From positions 1-2,594 of the forward strand of contig CH709149.1 of the NCBI GenBank assembly GCA_000004695.1: a DNA stretch of 2,594 bases. The letters are read 5' to 3'. This DNA comes from Dictyostelium discoideum (Eukaryota). Both the position numbers and the translations under genes were made by a program. The notes under the pieces are model-generated. The model had not been told where the DNA came from and searched no databases. It worked only from the letters and a program-made list of their open reading frames with translations. Position 1 is the stretch's first letter. Every line of letters begins with the position of its first letter. Shown one piece after another: positions 1-2,594 of this stretch.

Positions 1-420
1 TTCTTCCTTAATTTTATTTAAAAACGATTCATTGCATTGGAAATTATCATATTTACGAGATAAGAAATCAGCTATAAAATTCTTTTTACCACTTATATGT
101 CTTAATTCATAATCAAATTCTTTAATATATTTCATATAATTATCTTGTCTCTTTGTGTACGTTTTATCGTTTGACTTATTGATAATATATGTAAGATTTT
201 GGTGATCAGTGTAGATTGAAACCTTTTTACCAATTAATAAATGTTGAAACTTCTTTAGAGAATCAATGATTGAAAGGAACTCTCTATCACCTATGCTGTA
301 CCTCTTTTGAGTGTCAGTAAGTTTTCTACTGTGGAGCCAAATGACTTTGAATTTATCACCTTGAATTTGATATAATACACCTGATAATGCTTTATCACTA
401 ACATCACAATACAAGTGAAA
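1..420 (-). CDS. Partial pol polyprotein: RNase H domain plus the integrase N-terminal linker. It is truncated at both ends (N-terminal RT missing, C-terminus off the window).
   Basis: Same frame as above. Recognisable homology starts at 'FHLYCD' (codon covering 420-418). Codons further upstream (421-546) are read-through of the tRNA-flank repeat and are not part of pol. Confidence 0.75.
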
Positions 421-423
421 ACT
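1..423 (-). mobile_element. 5'-truncated Ty3/gypsy-type LTR retrotransposon fragment (Skipper/DGLT-A-like). It retains RNase H and the start of the integrase linker and continues past the left edge of the window.
   Basis: The minus-strand frame reading 438->1 has no stop (146 codons). It translates to ...FHLYCDVSDKALSGVLYQIQGDKFKVIWLHSRKLTDTQKRYSIGDREFLSIIDSLKKFQHLLIGKKVSIYTDHQNLTYII...RHISGKKNFIADFLSRKYDNFQ.... These are the three RNase H catalytic blocks (D in 'CDVSD', E in 'DREFLSII', D in 'YTDHQNL') followed by the canonical Ty3/gypsy 'GKxNxxADxLSR' motif that precedes the integrase. No RT-coding sequence lies upstream; composition changes abruptly at ~423/424. Confidence 0.8.
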
Positions 424-461
424 ACCCTTTTCAGAAGTTCCGCGGATGGAATGTTTTATAT

Positions 462-473
462 GGGAATCGAACC
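462..473 (-). promoter_or_regulatory. External B box (ex-B), a TFIIIC-binding-type motif downstream of the tRNA-like gene.
   Basis: The minus strand reads GGTTCGATTCCC, which matches the tRNA B-box consensus GGTTCGANTCC. It sits 57 bp beyond the internal B box and ~30 bp beyond the T6 terminator, which is the arrangement described for Dictyostelium tRNA genes. No terminator or acceptor-like sequence follows it, so it is not a second tRNA. Confidence 0.6.
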
Positions 474-502
474 TGAGACCTCCCTTTCCGGAAGTTCCGT
501 TT

Positions 503-508
503 AAAAAA
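503..508 (-). terminator. Pol III oligo-T terminator (T6) immediately 3' of the tRNA-like gene.
   Basis: The plus strand is aaaaaa at 503-508, so the minus strand is TTTTTT, directly after the predicted discriminator base at 509. Confidence 0.5.
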
Positions 509-581
509 TGTTGCATATGGAAATCGAACCCGTGACCTCTTACATTCTAAGCTATCTATCTACCATATGAGCTAAATAAGC
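509..581 (-). tRNA. tRNA-like Pol III gene, probably a decayed tRNA pseudogene, with a possible AAT (Ile) anticodon loop. The acceptor stem is not complementary.
   Basis: Minus-strand sequence: GCTTATTTAGCTCATATGGTAGATAGATAGCTTAGAATGTAAGAGGTCACGGGTTCGATTTCCATATGCAACA. The A box TAGCTCATATGGTAGA is at 559-574 and the B box GGTTCGATTTCC at 519-530. There are 53 nt from the 5' end to the T loop, as in a class-I tRNA, and a T6 run follows. However, the 5' arm GCTTATT does not pair with the 3' arm ATGCAAC, the T stem ACGGG/TCCAT is weak, and the D region carries a tagatagatag slippage. The overall pattern resembles tRNA-Ile(AAT) with many C->T and G->A changes. Confidence 0.5.
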
Positions 582-621
582 TTTGATTATTTTTCATTAT
601 TAATAGCTGAAATATTAATGT

Positions 622-690
622 AAAAAAAGTGAGTAAGAAAAAAAACATCAACAACAACAACATTTTTCATATAAAAAAAAGACATAAAAA
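622..690 (+). repeat. Direct repeat copy 1 (~70 bp) with a (CAA)5 core and an A-rich tail.
   Basis: aaaaaaagtgagtaagaaaaaaaacatcaacaacaacaacatttttcatataaaaaaaagacataaaaataaaataaaa matches 797-880 at ~85% identity. Confidence 0.8.
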
Positions 691-796
691 TAAAATAAAA
701 TACACAAAGAGTAAATCATTGGCCTTCTTTATTTTAATGTAATTAATTTTTTCTTTTTTTTTGAAAACTTTGCGAAGGCAAATTGAAAAAAAAAAG

Positions 797-872
797 AAAA
801 AAATCTCAGTAAGAAAAAAACATCAACAACAACAACATTTTTATTGATATTTCATTTTCATATAAAAAAAGA

Positions 873-903
<31 letters not shown>
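797..903 (+). repeat. Direct repeat copy 2 (~75 bp plus a 16-bp internal insertion), ending in a pure A29 homopolymer (875-903).
   Basis: aaaaaaatctcagtaagaaaaaaacatcaacaacaacaacattttt[attgatatttcatttt]catataaaaaaagactaaaa... followed by 29 consecutive A residues. This looks like a retroposon oligo(A) tail. Confidence 0.8.
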
Positions 904-906
<3 letters not shown>

Positions 907-1257
907 ACCTCACTTATCAGAAATTTCAAATAATAAATGTCAGAGAGCATTTATCTCGATTGGTCAATAAACATTAAAATATTAACTAAGAAAAAGAATT
1001 CACCATATATATTAAATCCAACTTTGAAAAAAATTAAATCTCTTACGTATCTAGTAATACAATAGTAATCAGTTGCAAATCAGGATGGACAGGAGTTCAC
1101 ACCGACAGCATTCAAGTAGTTAGGGATGCTAGTAATTCATTCAAACAAACAAAAATAAAAAATTCCACAATTATTAGTATTACATCAAAATTTCCAGTTG
1201 ATCACAAAGAATATCTCACAACAATGTCCACTGAGTTAAAAAATAAATTCATCAAAT

Positions 1258-1737
1258 GTGAACCAGGAAATCAACCATTCTACCTTTACCCATATCGGAG
1301 TAAACACTGAATGGGAACCAGAATCTAAAATAAAAGCACTTAACGACTTCACTGTTATAAATATCACTAAATGGAAAATTTTAAAATATAAAGAATCTAT
1401 GGCCAAAGAAGAAAAAACCAATGAAAAACAACAAAAAACAAATAATAGTGACAATACATCTTTCACCTCTCCACCCAAAGATAAAGATGAACCATCACTC
1501 AATTTAAGTTCTCAATTCGAAGTTAGCATTTCTATGCTTAATACTGACTTTATCTTTGATGACTCTTCACCAATACCAAATAAATTATTAGAGCTGATTT
1601 CACCTGAACCAATTGTTTTTAGCATCAGAGAATTGGATTCTCCAACTAAAGATAACATACTAAATGAACTACTTTATCAACCAGAACAATCAATTTATGT
1701 TCCTCCTCCTCCCCTCCACCCCCTCCACCACAATTAA
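1258..1737 (+). CDS. ORF1-like hypothetical protein, Asn/Lys/Pro-rich. It probably needs a frameshift to join the frame-3 ORF at 1668-1978; the only in-frame ATG is at ~1399.
   Basis: This ORF comes from the six-frame track (it is GTG-initiated in the track). It ends in a poly-Pro/C-rich tract, tcctcctcctcccctccaccccctccacc. Third codon positions are A/T-biased, as in Dictyostelium coding DNA. No zinc knuckle or other motif was recognised. Confidence 0.35.
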   Translation: MNQEINHSTFTHIGVNTEWEPESKIKALNDFTVINITKWKILKYKESMAKEEKTNEKQQKTNNSDNTSFTSPPKDKDEPSLNLSSQFEVSISMLNTDFIFDDSSPIPNKLLELISPEPIVFSIRELDSPTKDNILNELLYQPEQSIYVPPPPLHPLHHN

Positions 1738-1978
1738 ACAAACCAAGCAGACCAAAATTCAACATTAAACAAAAAAAGATTAAAACGATCGAAGAAAATA
1801 TAGAGGAACACCTCAAAGATACTTTAAATAACTCATCAGAAACAATATCAACAAAGAGAAAATACCAGGAGGAGCCAAATCAAGAGAATGATCTCGAACA
1901 AATATCCACAATTATGAACAACAATTTACAAAAGATTAATAAAAACTTATCAATCTCACTAACTAATGAACACAAGTA
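1668..1978 (+). CDS. Likely continuation (C-terminal part) of ORF1 in frame 3, reached by a -1/+2 shift within the Pro-codon tract.
   Basis: Frame 3 is open from 1668 to the TAA at 1976-1978 (…PPPPPPQLNKPSRPKFNIKQKKIKTIEENIEEHLKDTLNNSSETISTKRKYQEEPNQENDLEQISTIMNNNLQKINKNLSISLTNEHK*). It overlaps the frame-1 ORF by 70 nt and has no ATG until 1912. Confidence 0.35.
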
Positions 1979-2148
1979 AGATAGCAATATGGAACGCCCA
2001 AGGACACAGCAAAGAAAAATGCACCTTTAAAGCCAATTTAAAGCAAATACAATTTAAATTTGCTTTAAATTGTGTAAAAGTCACTCACACTAATCTTCAA
2101 TCCATTGTCACATTTGTTCAATCTTTAATCAAACAGTCCAATCTTTAA
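1966..2148 (+). pseudogene. ORF2 remnant: the N-terminal 60 codons of an apurinic/apyrimidinic-endonuclease-like (APE) domain, after which the rest of ORF2 is deleted or decayed.
   Basis: MNTSKIAIWNAQGHSKEKCTFKANLKQIQFKFALNCVKVTHTNLQS...* The WN-x-x-G motif and a '..C.K.THtNL' block at the same spacing (~27 aa) as L1-type 'NINGL ... CIQETHL' support an APE start. The catalytic Glu position is Val. A stop follows at 2146-2148, and the remainder of the window is AT-rich non-coding. Confidence 0.45.
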
Positions 2149-2282
2149 AGTAATGTTTTTTAATATGAAGGATAGAAAGAGTGAAAGACTAATATCATAA
2201 AAGTAAACATACTTAAAAGAGATAATTAAAAGTAAGGGCGTTATGAGAACTAAACCGAAAATCAGAATTTTATTATTTTTTT

Positions 2283-2377
2283 TAAATTTTAATTTAATTT
2301 TTTTTTATTTAATTTAATTTTTTATTTTTCAACTGAAAAAATAAAAAATTAAAAAATAAAAATTAAAATTAAATGAA
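2283..2377. repeat. Long AT-only imperfect palindrome. A hairpin is centred on tttatttttc-AACT-gaaaaaataaa (centre ~2332), with arms of ~45 bp.
   Basis: The reverse complement of the left arm (gaaaaataaaaaattaaattaaataaaaaaaaattaaatt...) aligns with the right arm (gaaaaaataaaaaattaaaaaataaaaattaaaattaaat...) with a few indels. Confidence 0.55.
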
Positions 2378-2504
2378 ATATTTTTACATGGAGATGCGCG
2401 AATTTGTTACGTTGTTGAGCTCATACTAACTTTAAATTAATTTAGTTTTGAGTCTCTAACACCTTCCCCTTCCTTCTTTAGGCTAGCTTTGGCTTAGAGG
2501 TGGA

Positions 2505-2594
2505 CTATAATCTCTTCGGTGTAACTTTTCTTCCTGATCTTGTTGTTTTAATTTGTAAACTAAGATCAAGTTCATCATCATCACTTGAAGTATT
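2505..2594 (-). CDS. Possible C-terminal end (29 codons plus stop) of a minus-strand protein-coding gene that enters from the right edge.
   Basis: The minus frame reads ...NTSSDDDELDLSLQIKTTRSGRKVTPKRL* with the stop at 2507-2505. Third codon positions are strongly A/T-biased, as expected for Dictyostelium genes. It is very short, and a second frame is also open, so support is weak. Confidence 0.2.
   Translation of the reverse strand, partial: NTSSDDDELDLSLQIKTTRSGRKVTPKRL

Follow-up and report, generated by a model that had tools for sequence, protein, structure and literature searches.

A tandem copy of a tRNA-like 3' end as the probable source of an external B box in a Dictyostelium discoideum retrotransposon nest

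We examined a window of 2,594 bp that makes up a complete unplaced contig of D. discoideum AX4 and carries repeats throughout. On its minus strand, a tRNA-like pseudogene is followed by an extra B box, and this box was found to lie within a degenerate head-to-tail copy of the end of the pseudogene. Probably, the region is what remains of a tRNA gene transcribed by Pol III within a retrotransposon nest, with the gene's 3' end duplicated in tandem. The locus family represents one concrete route to an extra B box at the typical distance from a gene, namely a tandem copy of the gene's last ~38 bp together with ~19 bp of its flank. The weight of this finding is limited by the fact that the gene is a pseudogene, that it lies in a repeat cluster and that the pattern is absent at two intact tRNA genes.

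A 57-bp tandem array downstream of the tRNA-like gene

A repeat search of positions 380-640 reported a single direct repeat, in which 425-481 aligned to 482-538 over 57 nt without gaps, at 77% identity and with a spacing of 57. On recount, 44 of the 57 positions were identical, as were 33 of the 45 that remain when the 12-nt B box is left out. Exactly this pair gave the top score among lags 20-120 over the entire window. The null model consisted of 1000 first-order Markov simulations of 380-640, for which the scores averaged 28.2 (sd 1.6) with a maximum of 34, and none of the 1000 reached 44. The array at 425-538 was missed by Tandem Repeats Finder, an outcome to be expected when just two copies of 77% identity are present. 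The tandem duplication claimed in the original prediction is thus upheld, with a period of 57 rather than 58 bp, and the self-alignment shows similarity that reaches beyond the 11-bp B-box motif instead of being limited to it.

Read as the reverse complement, positions 519-530 give GGTTCGATTTCC (the internal B box) and positions 462-473 give GGTTCGATTCCC (the external B box), and both boxes therefore lie where they had been predicted. As had also been proposed, the external box is not an independent motif, since it sits inside a duplicate of the variable loop, T-arm, acceptor 3' strand and trailer plus ~19 bp of flank. The sequences ggaagttccg and catatgg were both named as part of the duplicate; they do recur, although not as exact copies, because the distal versions (agaagttccg and tatatgg) differ by one base each. 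Positions 503-508 are A6 on the plus strand and T6 on the gene strand, immediately past the tRNA-like 3' end, and no run of four or more T was found on the gene strand of the distal unit in the window.

The boundaries of the repeating unit were taken from the aligned copies, which together give CGGAACTTCCGG(C/A)AAGGG followed by AGGTCACGGGTTCGATTCCCATATAAAACATT(T)n, with the 57-bp sequence CGGAACTTCCGGCAAGGGAGGTCACGGGTTCGATTCCCATATAAAACA. About 38 bp of this unit share homology with the gene: they start at the variable loop (AGGTC), take in the T-arm with its B box and the acceptor 3' strand, and reach the first trailer bases. The remaining ~19 bp (CGGAACTTCCGG[A/C]AAGGG) are the former 3' flank of the gene. 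The homology between gene and unit spans AGGTC...GTTCGA...CCATAT..AACATT, followed by a palindrome-containing module, and the non-pairing CCATAT is an oddity common to the gene and the units. The module is kept in 5 of 5 copies at 3 loci (15-18 of 18 positions), and an alignment of all copies showed no counterpart of it in the tRNA-like body.

On the gene strand, the window runs from the gene through T6AAA, a module (499-482), a T-arm copy (481-444) and a further module (443-425) to the junction with a Skipper-type element. All of these features lie on the minus strand. The trailer of the tRNA-like gene (500-508), assigned from the sequence, includes the T6 run (503-508) of Pol III terminator type, and it is followed by the proximal palindrome-containing module (482-499; gene strand CGGAACTTCCGGAAAGGG), which makes up the portion of the 57-bp unit that is not tRNA. 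Extra unit 1 (444-481; gene strand AGGTCTCAGGTTCGATTCCCATATAAAACATTCCATCC) is the copy of the variable loop, T-arm, acceptor 3' strand and trailer that contains the external B box at 462-473. It agrees with the published consensus GTCnnnnGTTCRAnYC and matches the gene's own T-arm segment at 27 of 32 positions, and the units of two related loci, L007 and L009, at 28-29 of 32. The last 19 bp (425-443; gene strand GCGGAACTTCTGAAAAGGG) are the remnant of a second extra unit, of which the palindrome-containing module is left, with 16 of 18 positions identical to the proximal module and 15 of 18 to the L007 and L009 modules. From this phasing, the distal unit of the direct repeat combines the tail of unit 1 with the head of unit 2. 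The window array once had at least two extra units, like that of L007, and the second is cut after 19 bp at 426/427.

Two further ideas about the unit were considered and set aside. A structured RNA encoded by the units was rejected, as their folding was no better than that of shuffled sequences (z from +0.7 to -1.35). The palindrome module was also rejected as a type-II tRNA variable arm, as on inspection 11 nt separate it from the T stem.

The tRNA-like gene is a decayed pseudogene

The original prediction spoke of a tRNA gene, a description that does not hold for 509-581. Read on the minus strand from 581 to 509, these 73 nt (GCTTATTTAGCTCATATGGTAGATAGATAGCTTAGAATGTAAGAGGTCACGGGTTCGATTTCCATATGCAACA) are tRNA-sized and carry an A-box-like segment (TAGCTCATATGG, ~563-574) and a B-box-like segment, the internal B box. 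ARAGORN at default settings found no tRNA in the window, and Rfam gave no tRNA match (RF00005) at E<=10, either for the whole window or for 420-600 alone (181 bp); a permissive Rfam search produced merely a spurious antisense 'Plastid-ycf2' match (E=2.7). Only when the ARAGORN threshold was lowered to 70% was the sequence called, as 'Ser aga', and its paralogue at L007 was called 'Thr agt'. Stem pairing reached 3 of 7 in the acceptor and 4 of 5 in the T stem for the window copy, and 4 of 7 and 1 of 5 for the L007 copy, compared to 7 of 7 and 5 of 5 in the genuine tRNA-Glu and tRNA-Lys controls. The minimum-energy fold of the window copy is not a cloverleaf, and its internal B box (GTTCGATTT) fails the published core GTTCRAnYC. 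The segment is a decayed tRNA pseudogene that lacks the marks of a functional gene.

Related arrays at two other loci

The related loci L007 and L009 were found with Skipper RNase H homologues as bait for tRNA loci. Among the retrotransposon clusters obtained in this way (L001, L002, L006-L009, L017 and L018), ARAGORN called no tRNA. Scans of metagenome and genome contigs with GGTTCGANTCCCATATAAAA returned merely unrelated AT-rich tRNA arrays.

L007 comes from another strain's assembly and is surrounded by DIRS and Skipper genes close to the end of a chromosome. Its positions 11807-12046 are ~80% identical to window 425-628 and include a tRNA-like gene that matches the window pseudogene at 58 of 74 positions. 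It keeps ~46 bp of the gene's upstream flank and carries no TRE5 element; since its homology to the window ends at 628, L007 serves as an empty-site reference. Two complete extra units (11864-11920 and 11807-11863) follow its gene and are 93% identical to each other (53/57), so that the locus has three B boxes spaced by 57 and 56 bp. The most distal of these units ends in T8. The prediction that only the proximal unit keeps a T6 terminator accordingly describes the window correctly and fails for the family. Immediately distal to the B-box array, L007 11600-11780 holds an AT-rich repeat, tandem or palindromic, built on TAAGTATACTTATTAA.

At L009, a solo unit was found at 6186-6240 with no tRNA-like gene beside it, and this unit is the closest copy to the unit consensus. 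Across loci, the extra units are 28-30/32 identical, while a unit matches its own gene's T-arm at 27/32 in the window and 23/32 in L007. The core GTTCRAnYC is present in 4 of 4 extra units and absent from both internal boxes, those of the window and of L007. The extra B-box copies can thus outlast the gene's own promoter element. Their retention may reflect a constraint independent of the gene, or chance among few copies.

Several observations concern the surroundings of the solo unit. In L002, L008 and L009 (GCA_054859355.1), bacterial-type gene fragments are interspersed with Skipper/DIRS genes, and they include aminoacyl-tRNA synthetases, Polysacc_synt_2, DAHP synthase, RecX and DUF6314. 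At L009 these fragments form an island (1900-6299) with a GC content of 0.31-0.46 between flanks of 0.13-0.22, and the solo 57-bp unit lies exactly at its right edge. The bacterial-type genes could reflect lateral transfer, symbiont contamination or chimeric assembly. An 'RVT_1' gene at L009 was rejected as a TRE ORF2, as its reverse transcriptase motif looks DIRS-type.

Retrotransposon surroundings

On its distal side, the array adjoins a Skipper-type Ty3/gypsy pol fragment (1-426, minus strand) recognized by Pfam and by protein and DNA homology. Pfam assigns the minus-strand ORF at 1-420 to the RNase H domain (RT_RNaseH, E=1.3e-25) of a Ty3/gypsy reverse transcriptase, and its closest relatives are all D. 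discoideum proteins at 88-98% identity. The fragment has the orientation of the tRNA-like gene, and its start, at the array junction, falls abruptly within pol. The leftmost 2-5 bases of the distal copy, at 425-429, overlap the end of the Skipper-type homology, which indicates that the array is truncated there. In the Skipper-type copies at L001, L002, L006, L007, L017 and L018, homology likewise stops at 426-429 and unrelated sequence follows, from which it follows that the array is cut by an abrupt mid-pol junction.

On the other side, a spacer of ~48-49 bp (582-629, minus strand) separates the tRNA-like 5' end from the 5' part of a TRE5-type non-LTR retrotransposon (630-2003, plus strand), the L007 homology running to 628 and the TRE5 homology starting at 631. 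The segment 630-2003 is colinear with elements at L015 and L016 that have ORF1 and an RVT_1 ORF2; they were reached via P0023 and then P0025, the look-up of P0023 giving merely 1.2-kb Logan contigs that span ORF1. Both elements lie ~40-50 bp upstream of, and head-to-head with, genuine tRNA-Glu(UUC) and tRNA-Lys(UUU) genes, and this placement is the defining position of TRE5 (PMC3159450, PMC5391098). We assigned 630-2003 to the TRE5 type because its colinear relatives sit at the canonical position beside genuine tRNA genes. In the window, the ORF at 1258-1737 encodes the ORF1 product P0024, which matches DDB_G0294170 (strain AX4) at 100% identity; ORF1 of the element is frameshifted and its 5' module is duplicated (~630-805 and 806-903). 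Within this doubling, ~632-688 resembles 808-872, and the second copy leads into a 40-nt stretch of A (864-903). The L015 element has its 5' module doubled in a similar way.

The window itself shows the same geometry, as the tRNA-like G1 at 581 places the gene head-to-head with the element and ~49 bp away from it. Integration of TRE5 needs a functional B box and probably also TFIIIC/TFIIIB in bound form (PMC3159450, PMC5391098). The canonical position of the element, combined with these requirements, suggests that Pol III factors probably sat on the locus at an earlier time.

It was also noted that the remainder of the contig has relatives elsewhere. The very start of a 4.7-Mb D. cf. discoideum contig (L018, 1-2061) holds homologues of window 2004-2070 and of window 2180-2594, and a copy of window 1-281 stands ~1 kb away from them; all of these are inverted. 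This layout makes the two ends of the window neighbours elsewhere, and the contig may belong to a bigger repeated composite, or may represent such a composite assembled in circularly permuted form. Window 2166-2471 is an inverted copy of L016 10766-11063 (85.5% over 311 bp), a stretch that sits in the TRE5-type ORF1 region of L016 and is missing from the window's own ORF1. A ~70-bp motif, gcaaagaaaaatgcacctttaaagccaatttaaagcaaatacaatttaaatttgctttaaattgtgtaaaagtc, at window 2000-2072 has at least 10 copies in the DIRS/Skipper cluster of L006, where it stands in either orientation, and further copies at L016 17150-17220 and L018 1994-2061. It holds an inverted repeat with a weak Rfam match as a miRNA-like hairpin, and is probably the terminal or internal repeat of another mobile element.

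External B boxes of two genuine tRNA genes

Two genuine D. discoideum tRNA genes, tRNA-Glu and tRNA-Lys, were compared with their own external B-box (ex-B) flanks. Outside the 12-nt core, the flank of the ex-B box matched the gene's T-arm and trailer at 16 of 45 positions for Glu and 13 of 45 for Lys, approximately the chance level of 32% expected from base composition, and neither gene gave a significant tandem signal at any lag. The two ex-B boxes (L015 9270-9300 and L016 9480-9510, minus strand) resemble each other, with AAAATAAT ... TAGATCnnnnGTTCGAyTCC and 38 of 70 positions identical. Their context, in which TAGATC stands four bases before GTTCGAyTCC, is absent from their own T-arms (n = 2 genes). 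The ATC agrees with the published absence of a GTC signature at such boxes (PMC3159450). When the 400-bp 3' flanks of Glu and Lys were aligned, the similarity was limited to low-complexity sequence.

The original prediction had offered local duplication of a gene's 3' end as a general origin of ex-B boxes in this genome, to be sought in the 3' flanks of other tRNA genes. That origin is well supported for this small family, in which the L007 array repeats the pattern, and it fails at Glu and Lys, which are too few to speak for the genome as a whole. If typical ex-B boxes arose likewise, their flanks outside the core would have decayed beyond recognition.

Origin of the array

As the most probable course, unequal exchange or replication slippage, in at least one round, would have turned the gene into a gene followed by two units. 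This duplication would have preceded the copying of the whole locus elsewhere, given that the paralogue L007 carries this pseudogene as well, with two complete units behind it in the same phase. In the window, the junction with the Skipper pol fragment cuts the second unit after 19 bp. TRE5 inserted ~49 bp upstream of the gene, presumably with TFIIIC/TFIIIB assembled on the locus at that time. The near-identity of the L007 units may be due to later homogenisation or to a second independent round. The extra B-box copies would act as additional TFIIIC sites, the role proposed for ex-B boxes.

We sought to weigh this course against other explanations of the same sequence. The units could have arrived as a pre-formed module, in which case the 57-bp unit would be a dispersed, self-standing element (half tRNA-like, half palindromic flank) inserted or recombined downstream of the gene, and its T-arm likeness would be due to common tRNA ancestry. 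The solo L009 unit, which has no adjoining tRNA-like gene and is closest to the consensus, fits such a module, as does the slightly greater likeness of the units across loci than to the adjacent internal T-arm, which is a counter-point to local origin. However, faster decay of the internal T-arms accounts equally for these identities, and the homology runs through CCATAT, the acceptor 3' strand and the trailer CATT, which are shared derived oddities rather than generic tRNA features. The units are moreover strictly head-to-tail and in phase with their own T-arm at 56-57 bp at two loci, and they have neither terminal repeats nor target-site duplications nor coding capacity. We therefore regard the arrival of a ready-made module as unlikely. 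A broader proposal is quite unlikely in our judgement: that the 57-bp module is a self-standing TFIIIC-binding unit on which selection acts without regard to any tRNA, its small arrays and solo copies marking centromere-proximal Skipper/DIRS clusters much as fission-yeast B-box clusters or ETC sites would, with ordinary ex-B boxes being decayed 50-57-bp duplicates of gene 3' ends in which the TFIIIC contact alone was kept.

Two readings would deny a duplication altogether. The boxes might be independent functional motifs, an internal B box and an ex-B box, with the surrounding similarity due to chance or composition; the lag of 57 is typical of D. discoideum ex-B boxes, and at the genuine tRNA genes similarity is truly confined to the core. 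This reading is extremely improbable here and is refuted by the identity outside the core, by the simulations and by the L007 units, 53 of 57 positions of which are the same. Alternatively, misassembly of a short, unplaced contig made of repeats alone might have created the duplication. The source is indeed a floating AX4 contig with two ends that adjoin elsewhere and an abrupt mid-pol Skipper junction at 426/427, and because the contig is 2.6 kb of repeats without a chromosomal placement, that junction could be an assembly join. The copies nevertheless differ at 13 of 57 positions, unlike a collapsed or duplicated read, and the same arrangement, there with three B boxes, stands in the independently assembled genome of another strain. 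This second assembly confirms the array as such, and an artefactual duplication is very unlikely. Local tandem duplication of the gene's 3' end thus remains the preferred explanation.

Implications

Ex-B boxes, TRE5 targeting and the isolated B boxes of the rDNA palindrome are already known, and ex-B boxes shape the landing sites of TRE retrotransposons. We found no statement of a duplicative origin of ex-B boxes in the searchable literature, with key older papers lying outside its reach. With the present locus family, the question of how ex-B boxes originate becomes testable genome-wide.

Comparison with known B-box systems

For the ex-B boxes at D. discoideum tRNA genes, PMC3159450 (summarising Hofmann et al. 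1991 and Siol et al. 2006) gives a presence on 66% of the genes and a position ~41 bp downstream. Like them, the external box of the window is an additional B-box match a few tens of bp downstream of a tRNA-type gene: GTTCGATTC (462-473, reverse complement) fits GTTCRAnYC and is oriented like the gene. Its GTTCGA starts 36 nt past the gene end at a lag of 57 from the internal B box, which is close to the 29-31 nt and lags of 50 and 52 for the genuine Glu and Lys boxes and in line with the published ~41 bp. Typical ex-B boxes are described as being without the GTC that, 5-7 bp upstream, is the signature of internal B boxes (PMC3159450). The window unit has GTCtcagGTTCGA, an internal-type GTC, where the genuine Glu and Lys boxes have ATC, and judged by this signature its box is an atypical ex-B box. 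Unlike the typical boxes, it lies within a clearly recognizable copy of the T-arm, the acceptor strand and the trailer; its family has arrays of up to two extra copies; and the gene it accompanies is a pseudogene. The boxes of the genuine Glu and Lys genes have no homology to their own genes beyond the core. On present evidence, the window copy would best be described as an atypical, recently made ex-B box.

The extra-TFIIIC (ETC) sites of budding yeast and the B-box clusters or chromosome-organising clamps of fission yeast (cited in PMC3159450 and PMC5391098) are likewise B boxes outside a functional Pol III gene. The present units are regularly spaced among Skipper/DIRS-type repeats, and their B-box consensus persists while the gene beside them decays. 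They differ in that any TFIIIC binding or boundary function is putative, in that 3 loci were seen, and in that their origin is visibly a duplication of a tRNA 3' end.

The solitary B boxes present on the rDNA palindrome also occur without a tRNA gene, and some of them have the GTC signature. The published TRE5-A target AGGGTCGCGGGTTCGATTCCCC resembles the unit core GGTCACGGGTTCGATTCCC, and both those boxes and the present locus can direct TRE5 integration at a tRNA-like distance. Apart from the B box itself, the palindrome boxes were reported to have nothing in common with tRNA genes, and their origin has been called elusive (PMC3159450), whereas in the units of the window the tRNA-derived flanks are still readable.
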